A program made the translations under genes and the position numbers. Source: Polynucleobacter sp. JS-Mosq-20-D10 (GTDB taxonomy: Bacteria; Pseudomonadota; Gammaproteobacteria; Burkholderiales; Burkholderiaceae). Taken from it: a stretch of DNA of 32,000 bases. Below, in pieces: positions 1-14,745 of this stretch (the first letter of the stretch is position 1; every line of letters starts with the position of its first letter). The notes under the pieces are model-generated. The model worked only from the letters and a program-made list of their open reading frames with translations, was not told the DNA's origin and did not search any database. The stretch lies in contig NZ_CP061305.1 of assembly GCF_018687755.1 (NCBI RefSeq), positions 2,019,788-2,051,787 on the forward strand, written 5' to 3'.

Positions 1-272
1 CCGCCTGCACTAGTAGCATCAGGGGCGGAGCAATCTCCTTTTTCATGAACATGAAACCCTTGTTCAGCATTTGGCTTTAATCCAGAAAAATTTCCGGTGA
101 CCAAAACATCATGCCCTTGCCATACAAAATTTACTGTACCTTTTGCATTTGAGCCTGAGCGCGACTCTAGGCTGGCGGACGCTTTTTGACCGGCGCCCTG
201 CTCCATTGACTGGCAGGCTACCAGCAACAAAACCGATGCAGCGCCGACTGATAGGGAAATCTTTTTAATCAT
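1..272 (-). CDS. sodC: Cu/Zn superoxide dismutase, N-terminal part (3' end runs off the window)
   Basis: Absent from the ORF track because it is open at the window edge. Reverse translation from ATG (272-270) gives MIKKISLSVGAASVLLLVACQ (lipobox), then GFHVHEKGDCSAPDATSAGG, the copper-ligand region typical of periplasmic SodC. Confidence 0.7.
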   Translation of the reverse strand, partial: MIKKISLSVGAASVLLLVACQSMEQGAGQKASASLESRSGSNAKGTVNFVWQGHDVLVTGNFSGLKPNAEQGFHVHEKGDCSAPDATSAG

Positions 273-420
273 TTTTTGCCTCTTTTTGTTTATGTCAAAT
301 CAGAATAGAGCTTGTGCTGATACTCTTCAACCAAAACAAAAACCTTACTACAAGTAGTCTTATTGACTTACCCAACCAGAAGACATGAATTCACATGAAA
401 AAACCACCCGCGGATGGTTA

Positions 421-469
421 TTCTTGGCGGTCAAGAGCAAAGTAGGCTAGCGCCCACGATGCCTGAGCC
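421..469 (-). repeat. tRNA-3'-end-like element (TLE), degenerate copy
   Basis: ttcttggcgg...acgatgcctgagcc matches the head and tail of the consensus. Lies just 3' of gene 482-877. Confidence 0.45.
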
Positions 470-481
470 TATAAAATATTG

Positions 482-877
482 TTACATCTTGATAATGCGC
501 CAAGCACCTTCTGAGCGACCATCACCAGTCTTATCGCCCGGCTTGACATCTTTGACATAGAAATACAAAGGCATGCCGTTAAACGTTAACTGCTTTTTGC
601 CATCATCGCGGGTAATTACTGAATAATCACCAGACACAGCCGGACCACCTTCTGCCAATAGTGGCGGCCAATTGCTTGCGCACATACCATTACAAACTGA
701 CTTACCTGAACCAACGACATCCTTACTATAGGTGTACAAGGTCATACCATTGTTTCCAGCCAATACGCCATCGTTAGCTTTAGTAAATGGTGCTAATGCC
801 ACTCCGGTCATTGATGCACAGGCAGCCAAAATAGCCGCAGCCACCAAAGCCATTAATATACTTTTTATGCGATTCAT
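482..877 (-). CDS. Lipoprotein with Yx(FWY)xxD repeats (secreted repeat family)
   Basis: Track ORF 482..883 starts at GTG. The ATG at 877 follows an AGGGG RBS. Lipobox LAAC. Motifs LYTYSKD...C.G.CA..WPP and LYFYVKD. Confidence 0.7.
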   Translation of the reverse strand: MNRIKSILMALVAAAILAACASMTGVALAPFTKANDGVLAGNNGMTLYTYSKDVVGSGKSVCNGMCASNWPPLLAEGGPAVSGDYSVITRDDGKKQLTFNGMPLYFYVKDVKPGDKTGDGRSEGAWRIIKM

Positions 878-990
878 ATTCACCCCTTTTTGATTGATTT
901 AATACTTTAACCCTTATTGAGATCTATCGCCTTACTAAGCATTGGCCACCAATTGCATCAATAAAAACTGCGAGAAAAAGACTTTTGTAT

Positions 991-1023
991 TTCTTAGTAG
1001 CCCGAGCCTAGATCGACCTGGGC
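991..1023 (-). repeat. TLE, degenerate copy
   Basis: ttcttagtagcccgagcctagatcgacctgggc versus consensus ttcttggtggcccggggcggaatcgaccagggc. Lies 3' of the CBS gene. Confidence 0.5.
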
Positions 1024-1046
1024 TTTAAATTTATTTACAACAAAGA

Positions 1047-1484
1047 CTAAGCTCCGTGACCATGAATGTAAGTTTCTAGAAACTTAATCTGACTACCTTG
1101 ATGTTCAATAATGCTTTTTACTAAATCTCCAACAGAAATCACTCCAACCACTTGAGCTTCCTCTAGAACGGGTAAGTGTCTGATGTGCTTATGAACCATT
1201 ATTGCCATACACTCATCTAATGAGTTAGATAGCGTTACGGTAAGTGGTTTTGCTGTCATTATTTTTGAAACGGCCACTTGTTTTGGATTATTGTTCGGCA
1301 ATAACACTTTTATAGCGCAATCCCCCTGTGACACGATCCCCGCCAAAACACCGTCATCGATAACTAAAATGGCTCTTACTCGATGCTCGCGCATCAGCAT
1401 CAAGACATCTTCTACGGTATCAGATGATCGTACAGAAAAAATGGCTTTCGCTTTTTGCTCAATAACTTGCTTTACTGTTGTCAT
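1047..1484 (-). CDS. CBS-domain pair protein
   Basis: 145 aa with an ATG start and two CBS-like repeats (RAILVIDDGVLAGIVSQGD; HLPVLEEAQVVGVISVGD). Confidence 0.8.
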   Translation of the reverse strand: MTTVKQVIEQKAKAIFSVRSSDTVEDVLMLMREHRVRAILVIDDGVLAGIVSQGDCAIKVLLPNNNPKQVAVSKIMTAKPLTVTLSNSLDECMAIMVHKHIRHLPVLEEAQVVGVISVGDLVKSIIEHQGSQIKFLETYIHGHGA

Positions 1485-1606
1485 AAAAATCTACCTATTA
1501 AATTGAAATTTGAGTGTAGCTGCTGTTGCTTAATCATTTTTTATTTAAGTAAAATAATTATATTCTGAGAAGCCATTCCATCTAAAATAGGATTATCAAG
1601 TTGGGC

Positions 1607-1635
1607 AAAATAAAATAGCCCAACAAGTGGGCTAT
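1607..1635 (-). terminator. Rho-independent terminator following a TLE
   Basis: Stem atagccca/tgggctat, loop acaag. A-run on the plus strand gives a U-run on the minus strand. Confidence 0.6.
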
Positions 1636-1640
1636 TTTGA

Positions 1641-1688
1641 TTCTTGTTGGCTTAGGGTGGAATCGACCAAGAATAAGTGTGTCGAATC
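1641..1688 (-). repeat. TLE copy
   Basis: ttcttgttggcttagggtggaatcgaccaagaataagtgtgtcgaatc. Lies 3' of the FAH gene. Confidence 0.65.
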
Positions 1689-1705
1689 TTTTTATGCCAC
1701 CAATC

Positions 1706-2731
1706 TCAAGCCACGATAAATTTAAGATTGCCCAACTTCTCAATACGCGTTTCAAGTTTATCGCCTGGTTTAAGCCATACCTGTTTTTCTTTAGGGTACC
1801 CTGTAATAACACCCTCAGGCGTGCCGGTAAAAATAATATCGCCCGGCTCTAAGGTAAAAATTTTGGAGGCATAGCTCACAATCTGGGCACAATTAAAAAC
1901 CATGTCGTTAGTATTAGACGACTGACGAACCTCACCATTAACGTATTGCTCTATCTTCAGTTGATTTGGATTTCCAACTAAATCTGATGTCAAAATATAT
2001 GGCCCTATTGGGGCGAATCCATCATTGGTTTTACCAATCATCCACTGACTACTACGTTGCTGTAAATCACGCGCTGTAAAGTCTTGTCCTGTAGCATAGC
2101 CAAATACATATAACAAAGCATCAGCCTCACTAACGTTATATGCACGCTTACCCATCACAATAACCAACTCTGCTTCGTAATCAAACTTTTCTGCGTTGAC
2201 TAATGATGCCTTTACAACGCCGTTATGGCTATTAAGTGTGTTATTGAATTTATTGAATAAAATTGGTAACGTTGGAATGGGATTATTAGTTTCTTTAGCA
2301 TGCTTTGCGTAGTTCAATCCCACGCAGATGATTTTCTCGGGATTGGTAATAGCGGGCGCATATTCGATTTTAGATTCGTCCAAAAACAAATTTTGGCCGC
2401 CCTTGCTCAACGCCAGGCCCACCAGCTTACCTAGACCTTGATCACCATTCTGAATCAAATCATCAGTATTAATTGGCGCCTTAACCTTAAACTGTTTTGC
2501 CGCTTTAGCAACATCTAAAATTCCTTTATCTGTCTTTACGCCTAGAACATATTTATTGTCCACTTTGTAATTTAGAACAGTCATGTTCTTTGCCATGTCA
2601 GGATTGGCAATTCTGATAGCGCCTGCACCAGGTCCAGCTGCCTCAGCCTGATTTGCAATAAAGGGCGTGGTTAGCGCAGCGCCACCGGCTATGGCAGATG
2701 CCTTTAGGAATTCACGTCTTTGGTTGCTCAT
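1706..2731 (-). CDS. Fumarylacetoacetate hydrolase (FAH) family protein with Tat signal
   Basis: SNQRREFLKASAIAGGAAL twin-arginine leader. FDYEAELVIVMGKRA and GDIIFTGTPEGV are typical of the FAH family. GGAGA RBS. Confidence 0.8.
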   Translation of the reverse strand: MSNQRREFLKASAIAGGAALTTPFIANQAEAAGPGAGAIRIANPDMAKNMTVLNYKVDNKYVLGVKTDKGILDVAKAAKQFKVKAPINTDDLIQNGDQGLGKLVGLALSKGGQNLFLDESKIEYAPAITNPEKIICVGLNYAKHAKETNNPIPTLPILFNKFNNTLNSHNGVVKASLVNAEKFDYEAELVIVMGKRAYNVSEADALLYVFGYATGQDFTARDLQQRSSQWMIGKTNDGFAPIGPYILTSDLVGNPNQLKIEQYVNGEVRQSSNTNDMVFNCAQIVSYASKIFTLEPGDIIFTGTPEGVITGYPKEKQVWLKPGDKLETRIEKLGNLKFIVA

Positions 2732-2864
2732 AGTCTCTCCATATTAGATTCTTGTAATTAAAGTTTTTTACTCCGACTAGTAATCTATCATGCGGTTAAC
2801 ATCACTACACTAGGGATTACCCGTCTCTGGTCAAATATAAAACAACACAAAGGTAGTTTTATAT

Positions 2865-2914
2865 TTCATGGTGGCCCGGGGCCAAATCGACCAAGGCTTC
2901 AAGATATCTGAGTC
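2865..2914 (-). repeat. TLE copy
   Basis: ttcatggtggcccggggccaaatcgaccaaggcttcaagatatctgagtc. Abuts the stop codon at 2914-2916. Confidence 0.75.
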
Positions 2915-3504
2915 TATTGGATGTTTTTTTCTTTAATTACTTGCTTAATCATTGGAAGCATATATTGAGACCATTTTTGACAGCCTAGAACTGTCATATG
3001 CCCCCCACCGCCACCAGGAATATCAAACAACCTGTGCTCACTATCAGTTGGAATATTTTTATTCCAATGTCCGTAGTAATGAGCGCCATACTTGGTTGCC
3101 AATTCCTGAGCCTCTTCGTTGCTTTGAATCAAAATATGGGATACATAAATCGTTGGCATATTCTGTTTTTGAAGATAAGCCAAAATCTCCTCTGTAGGGC
3201 CAAGGTTAAATCTAGGATTCTTTTCGTTTGGCCCAGGCTCAAAAATCACTATCTTAGTATTGGGATTGGCCTTTAAGCCCTGCTGCAATCTAGTCATCAT
3301 AAAGGCGGGTCTATCACCATCTACCCCAGCATTAATTACAGTGGCATTAACTTTATCCTGAGCCAATAACTCATTTAGTTTTATCGTGTAGGCTTGACCA
3401 GAATTTTTACAATTTGTGTTACTTGTGCCCAAGGCAAATATCTCAAATCCGAATGAGTTAATTGAGAGCAAAGCCAGGGCCAAAGAAATGATTAGTTTTT
3501 TCAT
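2914..3504 (-). CDS. Secreted SGNH/GDSL-like hydrolase-fold protein (tentative)
   Basis: Signal peptide. GTSNT near the N-terminus, GVDGD in the middle and GGGGHMT near the C-terminus resemble SGNH blocks I, III and V. The assignment is weak. Confidence 0.5.
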   Translation of the reverse strand: MKKLIISLALALLSINSFGFEIFALGTSNTNCKNSGQAYTIKLNELLAQDKVNATVINAGVDGDRPAFMMTRLQQGLKANPNTKIVIFEPGPNEKNPRFNLGPTEEILAYLQKQNMPTIYVSHILIQSNEEAQELATKYGAHYYGHWNKNIPTDSEHRLFDIPGGGGGHMTVLGCQKWSQYMLPMIKQVIKEKNIQ

Positions 3505-3556
3505 AATCGAATACTAACAAACCTAGCTAAAAAACCGTACGAGAATGGTTTTAGTG

Positions 3557-3609
3557 TTTCTTTTTTGGCGTAAGGTGAAATCGAACCACCAACACAAGAA
3601 TTATCGACC
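3557..3609 (-). repeat. TLE copy, subfamily A (pairable T-stem)
   Basis: ggcgtaaggtgaaatcgaaccaccaacacaagaattatcgacc. The minus strand reads GGTGG TTCGATT TCACC. Contains the stop codon at 3601-3603. Confidence 0.7.
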
Positions 3610-3753
3610 TTGACATTCAATTGGAAGATCCCAAAAAGGCTTTCCTGTTCCATAGTTACAACTAACCCCAACCGGCGAACTAGAGCTAGCAAGACAACCG
3701 CCCAAGAACACAACTAACAACATTACAGTGGTCAGCTTTACCAATCGTTTCAT
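3601..3753 (-). CDS. Small lipoprotein (about 50 aa)
   Basis: Internal ATG at 3753 preceded by AAGGGA. MKRLVKLTTVMLLVVFLGGC lipobox. The longer track ORF (to 3813) lacks an RBS. Confidence 0.45.
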   Translation of the reverse strand: MKRLVKLTTVMLLVVFLGGCLASSSSPVGVSCNYGTGKPFWDLPIECQGR

Positions 3754-3863
3754 TTGAAATCCCTTATTTAAACCGTAGGTGTAAATTTTTACACCAAAAT
3801 CTAAAATCGACAAAGGGGGTGCGGATGGAGCATCCTTGTGGTGCTGGACACCACCACATGAGG

Positions 3864-3880
3864 CGTTGTTTAAAACGACG
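3864..3880. repeat. 17-bp palindrome family, near-perfect copy
   Basis: cgttgtttaaaacgacg. One T.G position in the stem. Lies 25 nt 3' of the acyltransferase stop. Confidence 0.7.
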
Positions 3881-3904
3881 TTTCATGGATTTACACCCAA
3901 ATTT

Positions 3905-5776
3905 CTATTCAGTAAATTTTTCAAAAATTTTCTCAGAGCCGGCAATTGATAAGTAGCCCTTGTTTCGATAAAGCAGACCACCCTCAATTCTTAATTGGCA
4001 CTTGTCCTGAATACAAATTTGCTGATATGTATCGAATAATTTAACGTTGGAATTTTCAGCTATCTTAATTAACTCAGTCCTTGCAATGAAGTATTGGGCG
4101 TTTATATCTTTTGCAAGCTGTATACATTCTTTATTAAGAGTCGGCCTAAATGGTGGCATACCAGTGCACTCAATGGGCTCAAAAGATAGGTGCGGCGGAG
4201 GGCTAATGAGTATTGCTTGCTTGCCATTATCTCTGAGGAATTTAATAGTTCTCTCTAACTGGACTTTTTCTAGGCTATTAATAGCCGTTTCACGAAATCC
4301 CAGAATTACCGTTTTTACGCTCTGATCGTGTGCCAATCCAATAATGAGTTGATTCATTTTATGCCCGGTCTCGAGCGAATAATTTTCTGCCTCAGTCTTT
4401 TTAAGAAATGGCTGAGTCCCTGGCCACCCCACCATGGCAAAACTCTTACCAATATTTGAATAATATCGCTCAAGCCCTGAAAAGTGATTATGAGCGATGC
4501 TATCTCCAATTAATACCGTCTCTATATTTTTGCCTACGTAAGATAATCTACAAAAAGTTGGTTGGTAACCTACGAACTCTTGTAAGCAGGCTTTATCTGA
4601 ATGTGGCGGCCTTCCTCCATGAAGATCTAAAACATATTTATGTCTAAAATCTAAGCCATCTCGAACATAAACACTCCACCCTTGATAGCCAATCGACGTC
4701 ATGAGGGCGATCAATAAAACAGCAACTTTTTTGCCCTGATAACGAAACAGTCTCTCCCAATATCTATGCGTAAGATAAGCTAGTCCGATCGCGACTAGGA
4801 TGAGCGCAATTTTATGAAAATCAGATAATTTTCCGGCCGAGATAATTTGTCCAAAGCTTAGCAAAATCCAATGCCACAAATACAATGGGTAGCTAATGAC
4901 TCCCAGCCAAACCATCACATTATTAGAAAGAAATACTCTATTTATACTTGCTTCGCTGTTCGCCGATATTAGTAGAACCGCCCCTACAGTCGGCAATAAT
5001 GCCCACCAACCCGGAAATGAATTTTTACCACTAATCCAAAAAATGGCGATGTTAATCAGTATTAGCCCGACCCAAGAAAACACATTTAAGGCGGCCTGAC
5101 TGAATTGTCTTGCTTCTTGGCTATTTCTAAGTGAAATACATGCCCAAAGTGCGCCAACTAATAACTCCCAAAAGCGACTAAGGGGTGAGTAGAAAGTGGT
5201 GATTGGATCAAATTTAATGTTATAAATATTTATAGAAAATGAAATTAATATTAAGATTAAAACTGCACCCAATAAATTAATTCGAGCCTTGTACAAGATC
5301 CAAATAATTGCTGGCCAAAGTAAATAAAATTGCTCTTCGATAGATAATGACCATAAATGAATTAATGGTTTTGTATCTACGCTTCTTTCAAAGTAGGCGA
5401 TTTCATTTAAAAGAATGAAATTTTGAAAAAAGCCGGCGCTGGCGGCTATATGCTCTCCCACCCCCTTGAATTCTGAGGCATAAAGTGCGAACCAGCCAAA
5501 TGCATAGCATGTTACGAGTATCAAAAATAATGCTGGAAATATTCGTCTGATCCGTCGGAAATAAAACTCTGCAAAGCTAAAACTATTTGACTCTAAATTT
5601 TCTAAAATAATTTTTGTGATTAAAAACCCAGAGATCACAAAAAAAATATCAACGCCTACAAAACCACCACTAACCAAGTTAGGAAATGCGTGGTAGGCAA
5701 TGGTTGAGAGCACGGCTAATGCTCTAAGCCCGTCAATATCCTTGCGATAATTTATAGAGTGGTATTTTAAATACAT
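3905..5776 (-). CDS. Acyltransferase-3 family O-acyltransferase with C-terminal SGNH domain (OafA/YrhL-like)
   Basis: 623 aa. DGLRALAVLSTIAYHAF motif, about 10 TM segments, C-terminal LIGDSIAHNH block. Confidence 0.85.
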   Translation of the reverse strand: MYLKYHSINYRKDIDGLRALAVLSTIAYHAFPNLVSGGFVGVDIFFVISGFLITKIILENLESNSFSFAEFYFRRIRRIFPALFLILVTCYAFGWFALYASEFKGVGEHIAASAGFFQNFILLNEIAYFERSVDTKPLIHLWSLSIEEQFYLLWPAIIWILYKARINLLGAVLILILISFSINIYNIKFDPITTFYSPLSRFWELLVGALWACISLRNSQEARQFSQAALNVFSWVGLILINIAIFWISGKNSFPGWWALLPTVGAVLLISANSEASINRVFLSNNVMVWLGVISYPLYLWHWILLSFGQIISAGKLSDFHKIALILVAIGLAYLTHRYWERLFRYQGKKVAVLLIALMTSIGYQGWSVYVRDGLDFRHKYVLDLHGGRPPHSDKACLQEFVGYQPTFCRLSYVGKNIETVLIGDSIAHNHFSGLERYYSNIGKSFAMVGWPGTQPFLKKTEAENYSLETGHKMNQLIIGLAHDQSVKTVILGFRETAINSLEKVQLERTIKFLRDNGKQAILISPPPHLSFEPIECTGMPPFRPTLNKECIQLAKDINAQYFIARTELIKIAENSNVKLFDTYQQICIQDKCQLRIEGGLLYRNKGYLSIAGSEKIFEKFTE

Positions 5777-5902
5777 AAAACTGTTATTAATAATCGATGT
5801 AGCTCATGAGCCTAAAATTGAATCGTTCCAATTTAACAGCATTTAACCAAATCCATATTGCTTTAAACAATATTGACAGGCACAAGGATGTCTAATTGAT
5901 TC

Positions 5903-5917
5903 ATCCTTTTAAAGGAT
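5903..5917. repeat. Palindrome family, arm-compensated variant
   Basis: atccttttaaaggat. Confidence 0.55.
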
Positions 5918-5977
5918 AGTTCTTGATGGGGGTATCTGAGATTAATAGCGTATAGCCCAACAAGTGGGCCATTGAGA

Positions 5978-6026
5978 TTCTTGGTGGCCCGGGGCAGAAT
6001 CGACTGGGACTGAGGATGTTTGACTC
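5978..6026 (-). repeat. TLE copy
   Basis: ttcttggtggcccggggcagaatcgactgggactgaggatgtttgactc. Confidence 0.8.
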
Positions 6027-6037
6027 TAGCTCAAGAC

Positions 6038-6054
6038 TATCGTTTAAAACGACA
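6038..6054. repeat. 17-bp palindrome family, one outer mismatch
   Basis: tatcgtttaaaacgaca. Confidence 0.75.
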
Positions 6055-6217
6055 TTCATATACGTTGGTAATTTGAGTCTTGATCTTGTGCTTCATATTT
6101 GATAGAGGCCTAAAACCTCTGAGCAAGCATCTCACAAATTATCAGCATCGATTTGACTCGTAGAAATTGGGCTGTTGGCTGATTAATCAATCCTAAATCG
6201 AATCTTCCAATACATCT

Positions 6218-6535
6218 CTAGTCTTGCTTTCTTAAAAAATGTGGGATTGATTCATCACAATCTTTAGCGGTAATGGACTCTACTTCTTTTATGGGGTCTG
6301 ATTTACTAGATATATCAGCACCAACCTCTTGTGCGTAACGGTCGGCTGATTCAGCAAATGCTTCTAATGAGTTATCAAATGCATACAGGTTGCCATCTTC
6401 AATAGCAACAATTTCAACTACGGTGAATTTCAGTTTTGAGGCAAGAATTGCTAAATTGAACCCCCGCTCTTCACGAACCTTACGCAAGCGCTTACCTAGC
6501 AACTTGGCGGCTTTTATTTGTTCTACGCCTGCCAT
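6218..6535 (-). CDS. Helix-turn-helix (XRE/RodZ-like) protein
   Basis: ATG at 6535 preceded by GGAGGGG. LGKRLRKVREERGFNLAILASKL is an HTH-like segment. The track start at 6553 is a GTG without an RBS. Confidence 0.55.
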   Translation of the reverse strand: MAGVEQIKAAKLLGKRLRKVREERGFNLAILASKLKFTVVEIVAIEDGNLYAFDNSLEAFAESADRYAQEVGADISSKSDPIKEVESITAKDCDESIPHFLRKQD

Positions 6536-6642
6536 TGTCCCCTCCAATGGCACGATCTTAATTATTAAAAAAGTTTTTAGATATTAGCCATTAGGTGAAC
6601 AAATGAAGATTATAGGTAGCGTCTGCAGAGATCAATTGACCC

Positions 6643-8064
6643 TTATTGATATGCTTGTGGCAACTTAATGACAAATCTAGCTCCACCCGCAACAGCATCC
6701 TCATATTGGATAAAGCCTCCATACCTAGTGACGATATGCTTACAAAGCCATAGTCCCAGACCCATACCAGTCTGCTTGGTAGTGCTCAATAACTCAAATA
6801 GTTGAGATTTGAAGTCCGCAATTACACCTGGGCCATTGTCAGAAACACTTAATTGAACCGACTTACCATCCCTAATGGCATCTATAACTATACGACGCTG
6901 GAGCGTGCCGGAATTTGCCAATGCTTGAATCGCGTTATTGAGCAAATTTAATATCACTTGTTCAATTTCTGCCGAATTAACCTGAATAAGTAAACCATTA
7001 TCAACTTGAAGCTGAATTTGGATATTTTTAGACTTGAGTTCCGGCTTAACAATATCTAGAACTTTTTCTATCAAATCACCCAACAGAACTTTTTGAGTAT
7101 TCGATTCACCTTCTGTAAATATTGACCTCAGTGACTTAACAATCGTAGCGGCTCTCTTGTTATCTTGCTCTAGGGAGTCTAAGATTTCTTTACCCAGCTC
7201 CGGATTAAGAACCCCCTTTTCTAGCTTCATTTTCAGAAACTGAATGTTGAGATTAGATGCGCCAAGAGGCTGGTTGAGTTCGTGGGCAATCGATGCAGAT
7301 AAGGCGCCAGTTGCCGCGGTTTTATTCGCTTTCATCAGGCCGTAGATGAGTCGCTCTTTTTCTTTTAAGAGCTCAGTAATTTTTTCATGTTCGCCAGCGA
7401 CTTGAATATTTTCAATGCTGAGCTTTTCTAGCCAATAACCAAGAACTGCTACATAAGATAGGATGGAGATGCCAAGCCACGCCCATCTAATTGACGCACT
7501 AACTACACCTTCTTGATATAAGTTAGGAGTAGAGAACCCACCATCAATATACAAAGCTACAAACCTAGCAACGGTAAGGGCTATCTCGATAGCGATGGTG
7601 TAAACCAAAAACCGGAGTTGAGTCGAGCCAATTCCTTTGAGACGCATTAACTCCTTTAGCTCCCAAACAAAACAGAGGGCTCCTATTATGCTGACCAAAC
7701 CAACCCTTTGTATAAATAATCCCCTTTGTCTTAAGTACTCAAATAAAACAGCGAAAAACAACAAGCCCGCAAGAACAAGCATGTTCACATTTTTTGGGAT
7801 CAAAATACTAAGAGAGCGACAAAATAATCCAAAGTAAATAAAGCTTGCAATAAAACATGTGTTTGCTAATGTAAGCAAGAATAAAGATATTGTTGACGCT
7901 AATGCGAAGAGCGTAAAGGAAGTAGCAGTAAGCGTGAGGGCGGTTAGCCAGAGTTTTTTGGACTGGTTAGTTTTGCCCGACATTAATATGAACCTTGAGC
8001 CGTAAAGTAATCCCCATAGGATCAGAGCAAAAACAAGGAAGAATATTTCGTTTGCGTATTTCAT
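6643..8064 (-). CDS. Sensor histidine kinase with multi-pass membrane N-terminus (no cognate response regulator nearby)
   Basis: H-box SASIAHELNQPL, N-box LLNNAIQA, G1 DNGPGV, G2 GMGLGL. About 6 TM helices in the first 210 aa. Confidence 0.85.
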   Translation of the reverse strand: MKYANEIFFLVFALILWGLLYGSRFILMSGKTNQSKKLWLTALTLTATSFTLFALASTISLFLLTLANTCFIASFIYFGLFCRSLSILIPKNVNMLVLAGLLFFAVLFEYLRQRGLFIQRVGLVSIIGALCFVWELKELMRLKGIGSTQLRFLVYTIAIEIALTVARFVALYIDGGFSTPNLYQEGVVSASIRWAWLGISILSYVAVLGYWLEKLSIENIQVAGEHEKITELLKEKERLIYGLMKANKTAATGALSASIAHELNQPLGASNLNIQFLKMKLEKGVLNPELGKEILDSLEQDNKRAATIVKSLRSIFTEGESNTQKVLLGDLIEKVLDIVKPELKSKNIQIQLQVDNGLLIQVNSAEIEQVILNLLNNAIQALANSGTLQRRIVIDAIRDGKSVQLSVSDNGPGVIADFKSQLFELLSTTKQTGMGLGLWLCKHIVTRYGGFIQYEDAVAGGARFVIKLPQAYQ

Positions 8065-8405
8065 TAATTTGAATATTACTACTTAGAACTAAATGCGATG
8101 GTATATCGTTTTAAATAATATAACCAACGCAGGGATATCTAATGGATTTGACCTTTTAAAAGACAGTGCTTGATAGGCATATCCAAGATTGATGGCGTCC
8201 AACCCTGTCAAGCCTCAAAAGAAAATAGGCCATTAAGAGCGCTACCGAACGGTGAATGCTCCCTTGAGGGAATAATATCTGCGTGTCAGTACCGGTTAAA
8301 TTTACCTAATCAAATTTTTATTCCTATGGAGATATTCGTAATTCATGGTTGAACCAGATAAAGGCAATAAAAATAGGGGCAAAAACTACAGGGCATGGTG
8401 TTGGT

Positions 8406-8831
8406 ATGAAAACTATAGATATTTCAGATTTTAATCTTCGCAGTCCAGTACAAAGTTTGAACTTAAAGCCGTCTTCCATTTACGCCAAAGGCAAACTGCT
8501 GACGGCAAGCGCCGAAAAAACACTTGAGGCGGAACAATTTATAGCGGCTCATCAGGCTCTTATTGCTGATTTGAAGAATCAAATAAAAGAGTCAACTGAC
8601 CATACAAACGCAGCCCTATCTGCACTCTTCAAGAATCACAATAAGATTGTTGATTCATGCCAAGAACAAATAATATTAAGTTCAAGCTTAATAAATTGCT
8701 ATTTCAAAGTTAATAGATGCTCAAAAAGCCCCTCAACAGAAATAGCCTTAATTTTAAATAATTTGGTATTAAAAAGTATCTCAGTATTTAACGGCTATAA
8801 GGAGTATTTAAAAAAATACTTAGTTAGCTGA
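8406..8831 (+). CDS. Hypothetical protein (coding status uncertain)
   Basis: The only plus-strand ORF in the left 12 kb. The track start at 8349 is TTG and the first ATG is at 8406. Weak RBS and no recognisable motif. Confidence 0.3.
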   Translation: MKTIDISDFNLRSPVQSLNLKPSSIYAKGKLLTASAEKTLEAEQFIAAHQALIADLKNQIKESTDHTNAALSALFKNHNKIVDSCQEQIILSSSLINCYFKVNRCSKSPSTEIALILNNLVLKSISVFNGYKEYLKKYLVS

Positions 8832-8858
8832 ATTTAGGGCACCTCTAGGTAAGGATAT

Positions 8859-8902
8859 CCATGGTCCGAGGTGGCAAGGACCAAAACCAAAGACGCTAAT
8901 CC
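8859..8902 (-). repeat. TLE, degenerate copy
   Basis: ccatggtccgaggtggcaaggacc...agacgctaatcc. Abuts the patatin stop codon. Confidence 0.4.
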
Positions 8903-10008
8903 TATGCCCAGAATTCTTTGATTTTTGGTGCCTCAATTTTTGATCGATCATAGCCTGTACGCAATGCTCCAGCAATTTGCTTTGGGTCAAGCAAGTCAAC
9001 CCCCTTAGGTGTGCCGGCAACTATCCACTTCACCTTTGTACCAGTCGCCTTGATATCTTCAATATTTTGAGCAACGGGATGCGGAATGGTGGTGAGAATT
9101 GCGCCCGTCACCCCATCAGTCAAAGTAATGATCAAAGCTCTTTTTGAGCCAGCCACTAAATCTACATGGGCTGGATTAGAGCAAATACCCCCGTCCATGA
9201 CATAACGTTGACCTAATAATGTTGGTCCAGCAACCCCTGGTAAGGAGCTGCTTGCCGCCGCACCATGAGATAAGGGAATACCATTCTTTCTAGCGGTTAG
9301 TTGACCAACAACAATACGCTCACCCGTATAGCAATCTATTCCCGTTGTGAACATACGACTAGCCGGCCAATCTTTTTTGCTATCACCCGTTAACAATGCG
9401 ACTAGACTTTCAATGCGTTCGCTGTTCAGCTTATTGTTCGCTGCTAAAGCAGCATGGCCGATTATTTTAAGTGTCTCAATACTGCCGTCCTTTGCACTCA
9501 TATTAATTTGATCGGCCCTCACCTGACTAATATTGGGCTTAGTTAAAGGCGCAATCTTGGCAAAAATCTCGGGGAACTTACCAAAAAAATCAAACTCTTT
9601 TCGCAAACGGGAAAACTCTCCCGAGAGCAATGATGAACCCATATAAGAACCAGCAGAAGTACCAACTACCATTTCAGGAAGTTGAGCCATGTCTAACCCG
9701 GACTCAATAAGACCATGAAAGAATCCGCAATACCAAGCGATGTAATATTCTCCGCCGCCGCCGAGGACCATTGTTCGATCGAGACCTTTTGCTAATTTTG
9801 AAAACATAGGCTTGGTGGCAATTGGCAATGACAGGCCATCGTCAGAAAATAAATTATTAGATATTTCATTGGCCCTAGCTTGAATATTTGACTTTAGGGA
9901 CATTGACTGGGCTCTAGCAGCATCAGCCATAACTCCAGAGGTGCTAGTAATAGCTACAGCACTAACGGCAGAAGTTTTTAAGAAATTACGTCGGGAGGAT
10001 TGGGTCAT
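8902..10008 (-). CDS. Patatin-like phospholipase with Tat signal
   Basis: SSRRNFLKTSAV leader. GGGGEYY oxyanion motif, GTSAGS nucleophile elbow, DGG catalytic Asp motif. Confidence 0.85.
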   Translation of the reverse strand: MTQSSRRNFLKTSAVSAVAITSTSGVMADAARAQSMSLKSNIQARANEISNNLFSDDGLSLPIATKPMFSKLAKGLDRTMVLGGGGEYYIAWYCGFFHGLIESGLDMAQLPEMVVGTSAGSYMGSSLLSGEFSRLRKEFDFFGKFPEIFAKIAPLTKPNISQVRADQINMSAKDGSIETLKIIGHAALAANNKLNSERIESLVALLTGDSKKDWPASRMFTTGIDCYTGERIVVGQLTARKNGIPLSHGAAASSSLPGVAGPTLLGQRYVMDGGICSNPAHVDLVAGSKRALIITLTDGVTGAILTTIPHPVAQNIEDIKATGTKVKWIVAGTPKGVDLLDPKQIAGALRTGYDRSKIEAPKIKEFWA

Positions 10009-10053
10009 CTTTGCTCCATAGATCTTTTATTAATTTATAGCAGATCCCCAAAT

Positions 10054-10078
10054 AAAAAAACCACCCGAAGGGGGTTTT
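10054..10078. terminator. Bidirectional-looking terminator hairpin following a TLE
   Basis: aaaaaaaccacccgaagggggtttt. Confidence 0.6.
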
Positions 10079-10083
10079 GATGC

Positions 10084-10133
10084 CTCTTGGTGGCCCGAGG
10101 CGGAATCGAACCAGGGCCAAGGATGCTCAATCC
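10084..10133 (-). repeat. TLE copy, subfamily B
   Basis: ctcttggtggcccgaggcggaatcgaaccagggccaaggatgctcaatcc. Lies 3' of the BLUF gene. Confidence 0.85.
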
Positions 10134-10169
10134 CGCCCTCTCAATAAGCAACCTAATGAAAGCGGCGGA

Positions 10170-10568
10170 TTATTTCAGATCTCTCAGAGCGATCAAGAGT
10201 GGGTGTCCAGCAGGAAAATTTACATTCTCAACGGCCATAGCTATTTCAGGTAATTTTTTAGCTACTTCTTCACTACCCTGAAAAACCATAGTCCACTTAC
10301 TAAAGCTTCTATGTTCAATTGGCTTTGACTCTACGAGGTGAATATTTTTATGCCTAGTATCTTTTTGAATTTTTTCCCATAAACCTTCGATCTGAGTCCT
10401 TGGCCCTTCAATGACTTGACCAAAGCGATTATTTTCAAAAATCAGGGCGCCTGTAATCTCCATGCTCGTATTTCTCAAATAGGAGTGATAAAGCAAACGC
10501 ATCAAACCGAGAAAAGACATTTCTTGAGCCGGCTCGCTCACATAAGTTAATTCGATCAAATGGGTCAT
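10170..10568 (-). CDS. BLUF-domain blue-light FAD sensor
   Basis: LTYVS..., ITGALIFENNRFGQVIEGP, DTRHKNI and W.M follow the BLUF pattern. Confidence 0.85.
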   Translation of the reverse strand: MTHLIELTYVSEPAQEMSFLGLMRLLYHSYLRNTSMEITGALIFENNRFGQVIEGPRTQIEGLWEKIQKDTRHKNIHLVESKPIEHRSFSKWTMVFQGSEEVAKKLPEIAMAVENVNFPAGHPLLIALRDLK

Positions 10569-10643
10569 ATCGTTCTAATATAAAGAAATATCTCAATTAT
10601 TACAGACAATGCTAATAATTCCTCACAATAAGTAGTGACAAAT

Positions 10644-10666
10644 AAAAAACCACCCAAAGGTGGTTT
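10644..10666 (-). terminator. Rho-independent terminator following a TLE
   Basis: aaaaaaccacccaaaggtggttt. Confidence 0.65.
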
Positions 10667-10671
10667 CAGTG

Positions 10672-10721
10672 ATTCTTGGTGGCGTAGGGCGGAATCGACC
10701 AGAGCAGAGGATGTCTAATCC
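10672..10721 (-). repeat. TLE copy, subfamily B
   Basis: attcttggtggcgtagggcggaatcgaccagagcagaggatgtctaatcc. The tail contains the tautomerase stop codon (10715-10717). Confidence 0.8.
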
Positions 10722-11104
10722 TTTGGTGCGTATTGCATTTCTCCATTGCCAAATGACCAGTTTTCCTTACTCACCTCAACTAAATTAATAACGATATCCT
10801 GGGGTCTGACCTTGAGCTTTTCAACCAAACCTTCACATATGGCTTTGTAGAACTTCTTCTTTATCTCCGTAGTTCTGCCCTCATTTAGAGTCACCTGGAT
10901 GAAAACAATATCTTCAGAATACTCAATGCCTAGATAACTTTTGGGTATAACCAGCTCCTGGCTTTCGTGCCTAGTAATAACTTGAAACTTATCATCTTTA
11001 GGCACATTAATGTGCCCCATCATCACTTCATAAACAATCTCGCCCACTTGCTGGGCAAAGCTTTCTGAATGTTTTTTACTTAAATCAATTCTGACAAATG
11101 GCAT
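10715..11104 (-). CDS. Tautomerase-superfamily protein (Pro-1)
   Basis: MPFVRIDL N-terminus, 129 aa, tautomerase_2-like length. Confidence 0.65.
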   Translation of the reverse strand: MPFVRIDLSKKHSESFAQQVGEIVYEVMMGHINVPKDDKFQVITRHESQELVIPKSYLGIEYSEDIVFIQVTLNEGRTTEIKKKFYKAICEGLVEKLKVRPQDIVINLVEVSKENWSFGNGEMQYAPKD

Positions 11105-11123
11105 CTAAATATCTCCTTACATT

Positions 11124-11807
11124 TTATTTTTTGAGTCGTTCATTGCTGGGAAAAAGATTTTTTTTGGACTCTTCATCTACCTCTGTCTTGAATGTGTACT
11201 TAGCCTTAATCGCCTCAACAGCCTGGGCACTTGGCTTGGCATTAATCTCGTCTAAAAGGCGTTTCACACTAGGTAGTTTTTCCCAGGCACCTTCGCCCAA
11301 TACAAACGGTATCACCCTGGCCCAGCCCCAAACAGACATATCAACAATGCTGTATTCACTAAGCATATAGGGCTGTTTAGATAGACGCTCTTCAATTAAT
11401 AGCCAGTGACGCCATGCTTCAAAGTCATAACGATTAACGGCATATTCTTTTGGCTCTGGGGCAAAGTGCTTGAAGTGAACAGCCTGTCCGCAATACGGAC
11501 CAATGCCAGTCGCAACAAACATGAGCCATGAATAAAGCTCAGCATGTGCCTGTGGCGTATTTGCCGGCATAAACTTACCAATCTTCTCGCCCAAGTAAAG
11601 CATGATGGCATTGCTATCGAACACCTTAATGTCGCCATCAACTAAAGCAGGCGTCTTTCCATTAGGATTGATTGCTCTAAATTCTGGTTTGTGTTGATCG
11701 CCCTTACGGGTATCGGTAACAATAATTTCGTAAGGCGTATTGGTCTCTTCTAAATACAAAGCTACTTTTGCTGGATTAGGTGATGGGTGATAGTAGAGCT
11801 TAAGCAT
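11124..11807 (-). CDS. Glutathione S-transferase
   Basis: N-terminal thioredoxin-like fold motifs (YHPSPNPAKV, NPNGKTPALVD) and a helical C-terminal domain. Lies 19 nt from the tautomerase gene. Confidence 0.85.
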   Translation of the reverse strand: MLKLYYHPSPNPAKVALYLEETNTPYEIIVTDTRKGDQHKPEFRAINPNGKTPALVDGDIKVFDSNAIMLYLGEKIGKFMPANTPQAHAELYSWLMFVATGIGPYCGQAVHFKHFAPEPKEYAVNRYDFEAWRHWLLIEERLSKQPYMLSEYSIVDMSVWGWARVIPFVLGEGAWEKLPSVKRLLDEINAKPSAQAVEAIKAKYTFKTEVDEESKKNLFPSNERLKK

Positions 11808-11851
11808 TTTTTATTCCTAGAGATGGACGTCTTTAATGATACCCACAAATG

Positions 11852-11875
11852 AAAAAGCCACCCGAAGGTGGTTTT
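11852..11875. terminator. Terminator hairpin following a TLE
   Basis: aaaaagccacccgaaggtggtttt. Confidence 0.65.
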
Positions 11876-11879
11876 AGTG

Positions 11880-11938
11880 TTTCTTGGTGGCCCGGGGCGG
11901 AATCGAACCACCGACACAAGGATTTTCAAATATCCTCC
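11880..11938 (-). repeat. TLE copy, subfamily A, the most tRNA-like
   Basis: The minus strand reads AGGAT-ATTTGAAA-ATCCT TGTGTC GGTGG TTCGATT CCGCC CCGGGCC A CCA. No 5' acceptor strand or D arm is present. Confidence 0.85.
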
Positions 11939-12097
11939 GATAGACCGCTTTCGCTTTGATTTCAAGTGGTTAACCCCACCTGAGACATTTCGTGCGCAAA
12001 AATCCTGAGCGTAATCAAAAAGTTACGATAGCGTGTAAAAACTGTGCGCAAACAGTAAAGCCAATATGTGTCGGTCACCCACCATGGTTACTCGCAA

Positions 12098-12114
12098 TGT
12101 CGTTTAAAACGACA
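12098..12114. repeat. 17-bp palindrome, perfect
   Basis: tgtcgtttaaaacgaca. Confidence 0.9.
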
Positions 12115-12170
12115 AACTATTTTTACTATGCCTGCTTAATGAATCAGATCTTTAATTTGAATCGTATATA

Positions 12171-12635
12171 TCACTCAGGAAACCAAGGTTTTGATTCGTT
12201 ATCGCGGTTTTGAAGTTCATAGTCTTTTCTAGCCAGATCCAGATTCTTATTGAACTCAGCATCAACCCCACCAATAGGGCTAATAATATTCCTTGGTAAT
12301 GGCTGAAGAGACTTAGGCATCTTCACATTATCCTTATCGAAAGTCTTTTTGACGGTCTGAGCAAAGTCATGTTGATGCTTGTGCTGTTGATGTTTTATTT
12401 GTGTTGGCGTTTTTGGTATTGGCTTAGCTTTAGGCAATGGTTTAGGTGGGGCTGCCACTGGCGCTCGTTTTGGTACTCGAGGCTTTGCTTTGGTAGCGAT
12501 TGGTTTTGCTACAGGCTTAGCTACAGGCCTTGGCATTTGCGGTACTTCATTAGCCAGCTGATTAAATGTATTGTTAAAGATCAGTCTGGCTAGTTTCATC
12601 TTTTCATCTGCAGTGATGATTTCATCAAGTTTCAT
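12171..12635 (-). CDS. Pro/Lys-rich hypothetical protein
   Basis: Strong RBS AAGGAGA. Low-complexity PVAKPVAKPIATKAKPRVPKRAPVAAPPKPLPKAKP core. Confidence 0.55.
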   Translation of the reverse strand: MKLDEIITADEKMKLARLIFNNTFNQLANEVPQMPRPVAKPVAKPIATKAKPRVPKRAPVAAPPKPLPKAKPIPKTPTQIKHQQHKHQHDFAQTVKKTFDKDNVKMPKSLQPLPRNIISPIGGVDAEFNKNLDLARKDYELQNRDNESKPWFPE

Positions 12636-12808
12636 CGTTATCTCCTTTTCATATATTTAGCGAGAGATATTCAAACCCACAAGATTAATCATGTCGCATT
12701 CGGCTCTCGGCCATGTGGCTCGCCTCTGCGAAGTGGGCTTCAGCACCCAATTCATTTCTAATCCCGCCAGCAGGCGAGAAATTTCATTGACGCCGTTACC
12801 CCAAAAAC

Positions 12809-12899
12809 GCCCTAGCTAGGGCTGGTGTAGACGTCTTGTGCTTCGCTAGTTCGTCGGGATTAGCTAATCCCGACTATGGGGTGCCAAGCACGGCACCCC
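12809..12899. other. Cluster of three GC-rich perfect palindromes or hairpins
   Basis: gccctagctagggc (12809-12822); gtcgggattagctaatcccgac (12853-12874); ggggtgcc-aagcac-ggcacccc (12878-12899). Confidence 0.7.
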
Positions 12900-12904
12900 T
12901 AGTT

Positions 12905-13342
12905 TTATCGTCTAAAGCCTGCACGTACTGCGCCACTCGCCGCTTCAATCTGGGTATCTAATTCCCCAGCCTCTACAGCAACCTTAATAATCTCTAATGC
13001 TTTAATTAGCTCGTCTGCAGAATTTACTTCCACAGCAGTCTTGCCTTTAGCAAATTCAATGATCTTGGCACCATAGCGAACGTTTAAGCAAACCTTGCCA
13101 TCGGCAGCTACAAACCACCACTGTCGAATACGCTTTTCATGCTCAATATTTTTACGTGCGCCATCACTGTCTTTAACTGTCTTAAATTTCTTAACAGTAA
13201 AAGTTCCGCCATCTTTACTAGCTTTGGCTAGCTGGAGCTGCTCCCATACCTTGTTTGCTAATTTATTACGGCGATGCAGAACTGGTGGAATACTTGTCGG
13301 TTTTCTTGAATTAACCATTTTCAAACTGTTTAATGTGCTCAT
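12905..13342 (-). CDS. Hypothetical island protein
   Basis: ATG at 13342 preceded by AAGGAGAA. 145 aa with no motif I recognise. Confidence 0.55.
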   Translation of the reverse strand: MSTLNSLKMVNSRKPTSIPPVLHRRNKLANKVWEQLQLAKASKDGGTFTVKKFKTVKDSDGARKNIEHEKRIRQWWFVAADGKVCLNVRYGAKIIEFAKGKTAVEVNSADELIKALEIIKVAVEAGELDTQIEAASGAVRAGFRR

Positions 13343-13961
13343 CGTTTTCTCCTTTAAGTTAAATGGGCACACTTAATTTATTGTCATAAGTTTTGGTTGG
13401 ACAACCACTTTTTGCCAAAAGCCACAGAGATCTAATAAATTTCAACCAGATCTATTCTTCTTTTATTAGGTTTTGCTAAATAACTTTATAAATTACTACT
13501 GAAACAAGAGCAGTGACACTCAGTTGTTATGTCACCCTAAAGCTGGACTTAGAGTCGCAGTCATGGAAATTCTGGGCAGTAGCAGAGACTTAGTATCACT
13601 ATCCTTTACAGGACGCCATTAGAGTTGCTTACTAATTGATATAAGAATATTTCAGCACAAAGATTAAAAGATCACGAGCAAGCCCTGCTTACACAGCAAC
13701 TTGCAAACACGACATAGGTAGCCACTTAATGCTTATGTCATTGTTGCGTTTTACGGCCGCACATAAAAGGAGATAGCGAAACCGCCCTTACCCAATCGGG
13801 TTGTGCCCTAAGTGGTGTAGTAAAGAACTCGGCGAAAGTCCTTTCCTATAACTGAGCCTGTTGCTTAAGGCTCAGTGTAGGTTGAATCTAGCGAAAATCA
13901 ATCAAAGAAAAAAGGAATGTGTGAGCGAGAGCGAAACACAGGCGAATGTAGTTCGCCTTAC

Positions 13962-14381: not shown

Positions 14382-14745
14382 TAAATATTCTTTAGACTAA
14401 TTCTATAAGAGTATCAAGACAAAATCTCCTCTGTAATTTTTCATAAGTCGAAAATTTAATAGCTTTAGACTCATTCAATGTAAATCCGTCGTATAAGCGG
14501 TGAACTGAAGCTATCGCTTACTTGGGTAGCTGAACCCAAAATCAAACAGCTTATAGGGCTTATAAATACATCATGAATGATCGTGGCGAAAATGCCACGA
14601 AAAGATAATCTAATACATAAAAGATTATGAAATCAGCTAAGTCTTTGAATTTTGGAAGGTTCTTTCTTAGCCAATTTCGGTTGCTCTAACCAAACATAAG
14701 AAAACATACTGTAGCTCTGTATTTATTACATTTCAGGGAGAACGT

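Follow-up and report, generated by a model that had tools for sequence, protein, structure and literature searches.

Gene-sized cassettes between tRNA-Phe-derived sites in a probable additive genomic island of Polynucleobacter

Polynucleobacter ranks with the most abundant bacteria of the freshwater plankton, and genomic islands have been held responsible for its microdiversity. Here we describe a 32,000-nt stretch of Polynucleobacter sp. JS-Mosq-20-D10 (contig NZ_CP061305.1, positions 2,019,788 to 2,051,787; this whole stretch is called the window, and coordinates below are counted from its first letter), in which genes of unrelated function alternate with copies of a repeat that matches the 3′ part of tRNA-Phe(GAA). 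GC content of the window is ∼40%, and its top nucleotide matches are Polynucleobacter genomes and metagenome-assembled genomes (MAGs). A search for exact matches to three proteins of the window gave no hit.

Gene content and repeat sites of the locus

Read on the minus strand, the repeat is the 3′ part of tRNA-Phe(GAA), and a terminator hairpin usually comes next: a short arm leads into GG(T)TCGATTCCGCCCCGGGCCACCA, usually followed by AGAA and a hairpin with a T-run. Its geometry is that of a tRNA 3′ end, with a 7-nt T-loop, the 3′ strand of the T-stem (CCGCC), the 3′ strand of the acceptor stem (CCGGGCC), the discriminator A and CCA. A scan for the core pattern in one genome per species yielded 120 loci (numbered L...), in which 91 core matches lay within intact tRNA-Phe(GAA) genes (ARAGORN), from Oxalobacteraceae, Polynucleobacter and others, and 82 were fragments. 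Two classes of site were distinguished. Class I sites duplicate the tRNA-Phe gene itself, from anticodon loop through CCA (TTGAAAATCCTTGTGTCGGTGGTTCGATTCC...); in the window copy, 45 nt are identical to the intact gene. Class II, to which the majority of window copies belong, has a consensus of ∼50 nt, TAGGATnAGnCATCCTnGGCCCTGG(T)TCGATTCCGCCCCGGGCCACCA, in which only the ∼26 nt from T-loop to CCA are identical to the tRNA and are preceded by a conserved non-tRNA arm (TAGGATnAGnCATCCTnGGCCCTGG).

A class II profile recovered nine copies in the window (22 to 55 bits; best score in 50 shuffled windows, 10.2), and a site-plus-terminator profile made from other genomes only, with none of the window’s own copies, recovered 12 (19 to 84 bits; best shuffled score, 8.9). 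All 12 supported copies share one orientation. ARAGORN found no tRNA or tmRNA in the window, and an Rfam scan of it gave no tRNA match for the tRNA-Phe fragments. The first-pass annotation, made from the sequence alone, had claimed 11 repeat elements and confined the array to positions 1 to 11938. Nine of the elements stand (421-469, 991-1023, 1641-1688, 2865-2914, 3557-3609, 5978-6026, 10084-10133, 10672-10721 and 11880-11938), while those at 8859-8902 (2.1 bits, E=4) and 3823-3863 (undetected) do not. The array extends further: 28953-29013, 31156-31212 and 31720-31771 are additional copies, and in relatives the gene sodC, which marks the left window edge, sits between sites; the array therefore fills the whole 32-kb window. 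The features of the cassette part, and the sites at the right of the window, are as follows (T1 to T4 are terminator types).

392-471, minus: decayed class II site (∼421-471) with T1-type hairpin (392-419); 24.4 bits; most distal copy in the window
482-883, minus: Lipoprotein_15 repeat protein, cassette gene (Pfam, E=1.7e-28)
975-1023, minus: decayed site; 19.1 bits
1047-1484, minus: CBS-pair protein, cassette gene (Pfam)
1626-1693, minus: class II site with T2-type terminator (1611-1639); 22.6 and 22.1 bits
1706-2731, minus: fumarylacetoacetate hydrolase (FAH) family, cassette gene (Pfam, E=1.7e-64)
2833-2919, minus: class II site with weak hairpin; 39.0 and 45.7 bits
2914-3504, minus: 196-aa cassette gene with a weak SGNH/thioesterase-like match (NCBIfam only, E=0.0018); its stop codon is the TAG of the site
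3525-3612, minus: decayed class I-like site (TTGTGTTGGTGGTTCGATTTCACC...) with T1 terminator; 32.6 bits
3601-3813, minus: small open reading frame (ORF) of 70 aa with no assigned function (ORF list)
3823-3863, no strand assigned: “remnant” of the first-pass annotation, unsupported as a copy (absent from nhmmer results at E≤50)
3905-5776, minus: AT3-SGNH acyltransferase gene (Pfam), preceded by a 47-nt repeat module (5893-5939)
5976-6032, minus: class II site, preceded in the tRNA sense by a palindrome (6038-6054); 45.4 and 35.4 bits
6218-8064, minus: HTH regulator (6218-6553) and histidine kinase (6643-8064) (Pfam); homologues of ∼80% nucleotide identity in L136 and L147
8862-8902, minus: possible strongly decayed site at the patatin stop codon, statistically unsupported (2.1 bits, E=4)
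8902-10008, minus: patatin-like phospholipase, cassette gene (Pfam)
10049-10136, minus: class II site with T1 terminator; 49.6 and 79.9 bits
10170-10568, minus: BLUF photoreceptor, cassette gene (Pfam, E=2.9e-26)
10639-10724, minus: class II site with T1 terminator; 43.9 and 69.5 bits
10715-11807, minus: two-gene cassette, GST (11124-11807) and tautomerase (10715-11104) (Pfam)
11845-11936, minus: class I site with T1 terminator, right end of a 17-kb element; 84.4 bits; alignment with intact tRNA-Phe genes; same arrangement in L122
28953-29013, minus: class II site, the best copy, then T4 terminator; 55.1 bits
31156-31212, minus: class II site; 49.2 bits
31720-31771, minus: class II site with T3 terminator, the copy nearest the expected tRNA-Phe; 51.7 bits

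The main ORFs in 1-12635 all lie on the minus strand, as had been reported, and Pfam bears out the claim that their functions are unrelated (Lipoprotein_15, CBS, FAH, AT3-SGNH, HTH plus histidine kinase, patatin, BLUF, tautomerase and GST). By eye, 3823-3863 resembles an inverted, internally deleted site beside the palindrome at 3864-3880. The gene at 12171-12635, earlier paired with 11880-11938 as a further cassette, belongs instead to the right end of the ∼17-kb element. The T4 terminator directly follows intact tRNA-Phe in L012. Within the window, site quality declines away from the tRNA-proximal end (rho 0.72, P = 0.005).

Structure of the two site classes

Class I is an ordinary integration scar. 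The window holds a copy at 11880-11938, at the distal end of the ∼17-kb element; high-GC relatives carry almost only such duplicates, class II being found in cassette arrays, and viral (prophage-like) contigs contained class I duplicates and no class II sites. Across class II sites, CATCCT and the core are conserved at ≥90% while the remaining positions vary, so that the non-tRNA arm contains a conserved block (CATCCT, GGCCCTGG). For candidate helices of class II sites, covariation equalled that of shuffled alignments and no helix exceeded it; no common fold was found (z-scores −1.9 to +0.5), and the consensus lacks both RYYYAAC/GTTRRRY cores and an attC-type hairpin signal. Because of the missing covariation and the unremarkable folding, class II looks like a site read as double-stranded sequence, not an attC-like hairpin or an RNA structure; a hairpin or tRNA-like structure of the site was rejected on the same grounds.

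Cassette genes have their stop codons within the site or shortly ahead of it. Of 58 class II sites from the window and related loci, 27 are preceded by an open frame in the same orientation (≥60 codons, stop to stop) whose end is ≤30 nt before the T-loop, a distance that still falls within the site; for 42, such a frame ends within 60 nt. The GST stop codon is the first TAG of TAGGAT, and that of the tautomerase is the TAG within GGATTAGACATCC / GGATTAGAC. In Massilia and other genera, intact tRNA-Phe has this T1 hairpin, CCACCTTCGGGTGG, as its terminator as well, and this suggests that the site unit derives from the native tRNA end together with its terminator. Since most sites place a terminator-like hairpin ahead of the next gene, the description of the cassette ORFs as promoterless-looking is doubtful.

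The position of the site between stop codon and terminator means that it is probably transcribed, and with its T-loop, 3′ acceptor strand and CCA it could be imagined as a tRNA-like segment of the 3′ untranslated region, acting as an mRNA processing or stabilizing signal by mimicry of the T-arm and acceptor. We regard such an RNA-level function as very unlikely: a proper 5′ acceptor strand is missing, the candidate helices covary no more than shuffled ones and share no fold within the range of z-scores given above, and, as DNA, the conserved stretch matches the gene exactly.

Arrays in related genomes

In eight related loci (L014, L035, L052, L063, L080, L097, L031 and L039), an intact tRNA-Phe is followed by fragments in the same orientation at a spacing of 0.4 to 2 kb, and L102 holds at least seven sites in 8 kb. 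Most of 54 inter-site intervals in related loci measure 370 to 1300 bp and contain one or two ORFs; as counted from the ORF table, ∼30 small cassettes are co-oriented with the tRNA and nine are reversed. Toxin-antitoxin pairs are among the cassettes of these arrays, and those of L063 encode HigB/HigA-like, Phd/YoeB and BrnT/BrnA proteins. The flank behind the CCA of the intact tRNA differs among genomes and is drawn from the few terminator types (T1 to T5) that also follow the fragments.

Some related arrays lie after tRNA-Met instead. In L130 (614-1400) and L126 (246-4283), Phd/YoeB and then GST and tautomerase, with class II sites, stand directly after tRNA-Met(CAT); between tRNA-Met and these Phe-type cassettes, L126 has an inserted island whose 436-aa integrase is 44% identical to that of the window. 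Comparison of L116 (2674-2834) with L035 (1405-1565) revealed an apparent second, 5′-partial tRNA-Phe with the native upstream flank in L116, ∼1.9 kb upstream of the intact tRNA-Phe, which suggests that an insertion regenerated the tRNA at its downstream end. Class II arrays, including a Phd/YoeB cassette end, were also seen in L032 and L092 (MAGs labelled Alcaligenaceae and Bordetella; 48 to 54% GC), where the post-CCA flank differs (TCTGAAACTG...); because of these two loci the cassette system appears to reach beyond Polynucleobacter.

Cassette mobility and breakpoints

Individual cassettes recur in different neighborhoods. The BrnA cassette (371 bp) is 98.6% identical between L052, where it directly follows the intact tRNA, and L122, where it follows a class II site; identity starts at TCGATTCC and falls off past the next TCGATTCC. 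Phd/YoeB, BrnTA, HigBA and other cassettes are likewise common to genomes from end to end with differing neighbors. The cassettes of the window behave similarly. Its CBS cassette (1017-1671) matches L123 (5834-6489) at 90.7% from site to site; the FAH cassette (1638-2892) matches L136 (557-1813) at 90.4%, the next cassette being GST in L136 and CBS in the window; and patatin (8901-10126) matches L125 (1023-2247) at 80.6%, with homology ending in the upstream site. Homologues of BLUF (89%) directly follow a GST cassette in L123, L124, L125 and L131, a 71% nucleotide homologue of the Lipoprotein_15 gene adjoins a site in L053, and window positions 3546-3800 are 72% identical to L004 (6290-6542). 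CBS, FAH, patatin and BLUF recur in lake metagenome contigs at 80 to 92% identity, with homology ending in sites and other genes as neighbors.

The GST of the window, used as the query in a metagenome scan, retrieved 80 lake contigs, 31 of which held a total of 103 sites, every one in the orientation of GST. Of the 27 contigs whose GST has ≥94% amino acid identity, 17 have the upstream site ∼78 to 82 nt ahead of the start codon, and in 18 the stop codon is overlapped by the downstream site. Neighbors were diverse: nine types were counted upstream in 15 loci, and 12 downstream in 19 loci. At ≤92% identity GST sits in ordinary operon contexts and sites are absent, from which it follows that the gene was recruited into a cassette. 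GST stands alone between sites in L102 and many metagenome loci; the tautomerase accompanies it in a subset only (L126, L128, L130, L133, L134, L146 and L147). In the compared GST loci that have an upstream site, the arm upstream changes with the neighbor, whereas GST keeps its T1 terminator and leader; this places the exchange inside the ∼26-nt tRNA-identical core. These alignments show that, after exchange, terminator and leader go with the next gene and the arm with the preceding gene. A cassette consists of the 3′ part of the core, a terminator, a leader, the gene and an arm.

Thus the view of the first-pass annotation that the locus is flexible and was built unit by unit, with breakpoints at the repeats, is borne out by the same cassettes having nine to 12 different neighbors: the locus varies, instead of being syntenic and invariant. 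This variability also bears on the possibility that a tRNA-derived element resembling a miniature inverted-repeat transposable element (MITE) was secondarily inserted into the terminators of a pre-existing gene row. The unit is short (50 to 95 nt), abundant and placed between stop codon and terminator, as such an element might be, but gene order between copies is highly variable and not syntenic, the copies are all co-oriented and abut intact tRNA-Phe in relatives, and terminal inverted repeats were not noticed in the copies read (no search was aimed at flanking target duplications). That annotation had itself raised a MITE as the alternative, and we consider it extremely improbable.

A second alternative is that the small units are immobile scars, the debris of many full-size integrase-bearing islands that entered tRNA-Phe in succession and from which integrases and most of the cargo were then deleted. 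A full-size element and class I fragments are present, distal sites are decayed, and tycheposon islands contain degenerate elements and scattered partial tRNAs (bioRxiv 10.1101/2020.12.28.424599). However, small cassettes (371 to 680 bp, 90 to 99% identical) occur between sites in different genomes with differing neighbors, even directly after the intact tRNA; the class II arm is shared, and absent from the tRNA and from class I scars; and independent deletions would not repeatedly leave one gene and one site with an internal stop codon. We think this account improbable.

Homologous recombination alone is a more serious rival. Here site and terminator (50 to 95 nt, highly similar) would act as portable homology by which RecA-type recombination of incoming DNA swaps, deletes and inserts cassettes without a dedicated recombinase, the sites having descended by duplication from the tRNA-Phe 3′ end and its native terminator. 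Breakpoints occur in the core but also at the outer edges of homology (the stop codon or arm edge, and just past the terminator), a pattern that fits heteroduplex formation and gene conversion; GST cassettes are 97 to 98% identical in protein while arms and cores diverge far more than the gene; most array contigs show no integrase; and site plus T1 resembles a copy of the native locus, T1 following intact tRNA-Phe in Massilia and other genera. Against this, a first insertion beside a single-copy tRNA would need a crossover on 26 to 65 nt, which is inefficient, the selectively conserved block of the arm (CATCCT, GGCCCTGG) suggests recognition by a protein, and tRNA-Phe-specific integrases occur in the same arrays. 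On balance, shuffling by homologous recombination only is unlikely to be the whole explanation, though it stays a serious contender.

The 17-kb integrative element and its recombinases

Between the class I site and the best class II copy lies an integrative element that carries recombinase genes and, within it, an inserted module.

11937-28952, minus: integrative element of ∼17 kb with tRNA-Phe-derived sites at both ends (Pfam, Rfam, nucleotide homology to L122)
14746-15312, plus: tyrosine recombinase of 188 aa, close to FimB/FimE in size and limited to the catalytic domain (Pfam PF00589, E=7e-25)
18334-18350, no strand assigned: palindrome TGTCGTTTTAAACGACA, left boundary of the inserted 4.5-kb module
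22892-22908, no strand assigned: palindrome TGTCGTTTAAAACGACA, right boundary of the inserted 4.5-kb module
22918-24192, minus: 424-aa divergent tyrosine integrase (Pfam, at threshold)

The earlier view that the window holds no integrase is therefore incorrect, as two tyrosine recombinase genes (14746-15312 and 22918-24192) are present in an element bounded by the same repeats. Its cargo comprises DUF6641, a Polynucleobacter-1 RNA, the 188-aa recombinase, a clamp-loader-like AAA ATPase, a 4.5-kb methyltransferase module, the 424-aa integrase, WYL and HTH regulators and a SAM-I/IV riboswitch. A homologous element of 16.6 kb in L122 (72 to 79% nucleotide identity) likewise lies between sites.

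In NCBIfam the 188-aa protein has matches of XerC/XerD and invertase type, all below cut-off, and it scores far below the cut-offs of integron-integrase profiles (TIGR02249, 44 bits, cut-off 265; PRK15417, 25 bits, cut-off 435), to which the 424-aa protein gave no match. The length of 188 aa is kept in L005 and L122, and in L005, L122 and L035 this recombinase is accompanied by a member of the 424-aa integrase family. The 424-aa integrase has >3000 full-length homologues, one of which (42%) directly adjoins tRNA-Phe in L054; it is ≤31% identical to anything in the phage and plasmid collections, and a solved relative was not found. A phage origin was rejected on two counts, viral contigs having only class I sites and the 424-aa integrase being ≤31% identical to phage and plasmid entries. 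Upstream of tRNA-Phe, a homologue of the 188-aa recombinase (48%) lies at 3.4 to 4.8 kb in L035 and L116, L035 having a homologue of the 424-aa integrase in addition. No resident integrase was found within 4.3 kb upstream of tRNA-Phe in L063, and the sequence upstream of tRNA-Phe in L063, L097 and L080 contained nothing homologous, at the nucleotide level, to this recombinase region of L035 and L116.

The Polynucleobacter-1 RNA (Rfam RF01718) is a conserved part of the integrase-bearing element and lies beside DUF6641 both in the window (13508-13643, plus strand) and in L122 (15939-16075), with 93.6 and 77.4 bits. The SAM-I/IV riboswitch aptamer (27509-27606, plus strand; 64 bits) is unusual in its context: it is part of a mobile element, and the genes downstream of it encode an XRE-type HTH protein (27691-28050) and a 225-aa protein without a Pfam match. 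Five tandem 21-nt units (CCWTACAACATGSRTAAYAGY) at 24447-24551, inside a 100-aa ORF (24369-24671), encode a PYNM-type peptide repeat.

A 17-bp palindrome and a 47-nt repeat module

The window contains 13 copies, vs 0.06 expected, of a 17-bp palindrome with the sequence TGTCGTTTWAAACGACA (variant TGTCCTTTWAAAGGACA), starting at 3864, 6038, 8149, 12098, 15696, 16623, 18334, 22892, 24005, 28741, 30960, 31058 and 31775. The palindrome was counted 49 times in 279 kb of Polynucleobacter-like loci and not at all in 647 kb of high-GC loci. One perfect copy in the coding region of the 424-aa integrase (encoding CRFKRH) is conserved in L121 and L122. At 18334-22908, the integrase and AAA genes are separated by the 4.5-kb module, which encodes, among others, a 4Fe-4S protein and two DNA methyltransferases and whose two flanking palindromes differ solely in the central base. 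Since L121 (3237-3290) has a single palindrome at the integrase/AAA junction, where the module has two, the palindrome behaves as a second type of insertion site.

Three copies of a ∼47-nt repeat module (5893-5939, 8140-8186 and 31049-31095; also L063, 4440-4580) include a palindrome variant, and a tRNA-arm-like piece comes after the module (GGGGATTTGTCATCCCTGTG in the 31049-31095 copy and in L063). The module stands upstream of larger units (AT3, histidine kinase and a 412-aa gene) and, in L063, shortly after intact tRNA-Phe. Possibly it represents the second arm of the attachment site of a larger element.

A proposed explanation of the array

We consider it probable that the window lies inside an additive flexible genomic island downstream of tRNA-Phe(GAA), built from integrase-less cassettes that recombine in the tRNA-identical core. 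Two kinds of unit would be stacked in the orientation of the tRNA. The first is a classical integrase-bearing element of ∼17 kb, whose distal end has the 45-nt class I duplicate; the second comprises many small cassettes without an integrase (0.4 to 3 kb, usually one or two genes), each ending in a class II site. A tyrosine recombinase specific for tRNA-Phe would catalyze the exchange in trans, the strands being exchanged at the T-loop; new units would enter at the intact tRNA, older ones being pushed distally to decay, and homologous recombination and gene conversion among the many copies of the site may add further shuffling. A circular cassette is predicted to have a junction of arm, TTCGATTCCGCCCCGGGCCACCA and the cassette’s own upstream terminator. 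The logic would be integron-like, with tRNA-Phe as attI, class II as attC and toxin-antitoxin cassettes stabilizing the array, from parts unrelated to those of the integron. Judged from sequence, a recombinase acting in trans on class II cassettes is likely, and a tyrosine recombinase is the best candidate because of the tRNA-Phe target, the strict co-orientation, the conserved arm, the tRNA-Phe-associated integrases and the distal decay.

Several observations weigh against this explanation. The window has no intact tRNA-Phe (ARAGORN), its anchoring being deduced from relatives, and Phe-type cassettes also stand downstream of tRNA-Met in L130 and L126. No recombinase is linked to class II sites, integrases being seen only in class I-ended elements, and GST-containing contigs totalling ∼600 kb hold one integrase homologue, beside tRNA-Met. 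Some breakpoints are off the T-loop: the Phd/YoeB gene is kept while the arm differs in L004 vs L063, the BrnTA cassette has terminator T1 in L102 and T3 in L063, and the breakpoint for presence or absence of the tautomerase is the GST stop codon. Such off-core breakpoints may be due to gene conversion or homologous recombination between copies of the site. The decay gradient is not significant across 20 arrays (14 of 20 with the expected sign, P = 0.12), and the present sequence data show neither excision nor circular intermediates.

An extended form of this explanation would make class II the attC equivalent of a dedicated, convergently evolved integron analogue. In Polynucleobacter and other Burkholderiales of fresh water, single-gene cassettes would then be captured and reshuffled at tRNA-Phe (as attI) by a tyrosine recombinase that is either resident or carried by an element, the in-frame TAG would give captured ORFs their stop codons, and the 17-bp palindrome would serve as a second site type for the insertion of larger modules. 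This extension is tentative, and we consider it unlikely. If a dedicated recombinase does exist, it would amount to a second, independent invention of the integron principle, and the locus raises the biochemical question of which recombinase acts on class II sites. The locus presents the construction of an additive island at nucleotide resolution, from integrase-less, gene-sized cassettes with a ∼50-nt tRNA-Phe-derived site, and these cassettes are shared among species and also occur in MAGs labelled Alcaligenaceae and Bordetella. The definition of the site (arm plus T-loop-to-CCA core) could serve to mine cassette pools of lake metagenomes, as attC models do for integrons.

Comparison with known systems

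With chromosomal integrons the array shares cassettes that have one or two genes, a common orientation and a site at the end, as well as toxin-antitoxin cassettes, the occurrence of cassettes in varied contexts and, probably, one privileged insertion site. Unlike them it has no IntI, no R''/L''/L'/R' cores and no structured attC or hairpin covariation, it is probably anchored at a tRNA gene, and a hairpin lies between most cassettes where integrons rely on read-through from the Pc promoter. The locus is thus not an integron, though it works like one; the first-pass annotation had reached the same exclusion from missing IntI and RYYYAAC/GTTRRRY cores, to which the absence of an attC-type hairpin signal is added here. 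Cis-mobilizable elements (CIMEs) are att-flanked units without recombination genes, known from accretion of the ICESt type (integrative and conjugative elements, ICEs) in Streptococcus. Like the small cassettes, they are integrase-less, bounded by att sites, potentially movable in trans by a related integrase and subject to accretion at one att site, but they measure a few kilobases, are few in number and derive from ICEs, whereas here dozens of gene-sized units share a dedicated type of site.

The closest likeness is to islands in which tRNA 3′-end repeats bound inserted cassettes, a published hallmark of additive islands and of tRNA-targeting integrative elements (PMC4898812, PMC10872708, bioRxiv 10.1101/2020.12.28.424599), so that the new kind of mechanism implied by the first-pass annotation is not supported. 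In the additive islands of Alteromonas, tRNA-Phe and tRNA-Met are the most used hotspots (PMC4898812), and fGI-2 of ‘Ca. Methylopumilus’ contains repeats of the last 20 bp of tRNA-Lys (PMC10872708). Both have a fixed hotspot 3′ of a tRNA, a position that is probable for the present locus too, and share with it units of varying number and content, each bearing the tRNA 3′ end as a direct repeat, near-identical cassettes across strains or species, and miscellaneous niche-related cargo including toxin-antitoxin genes. The present units differ in being mostly single genes, packed from stop codon to site with a terminator-like hairpin after most sites, and the repeat differs in being a ∼50-nt site with a non-tRNA arm; neither the arm nor such regularity is reported in PMC4898812 or PMC10872708. 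Tycheposons are similar in being tyrosine-recombinase elements at tRNA genes with full and partial tRNA flanks, island pile-up and remnants, but carry their own integrase and replication modules, of which the small cassettes have neither (bioRxiv 10.1101/2020.12.28.424599). A literature search returned no description of a Polynucleobacter tRNA-Phe array or of the conserved non-tRNA arm, and a population-genomics paper on Polynucleobacter mentions neither tRNA nor integrase (PMC5644125). The kind of locus is therefore already known from Alteromonas, Methylopumilus and tycheposons, and what is new is its integron-like fine structure.

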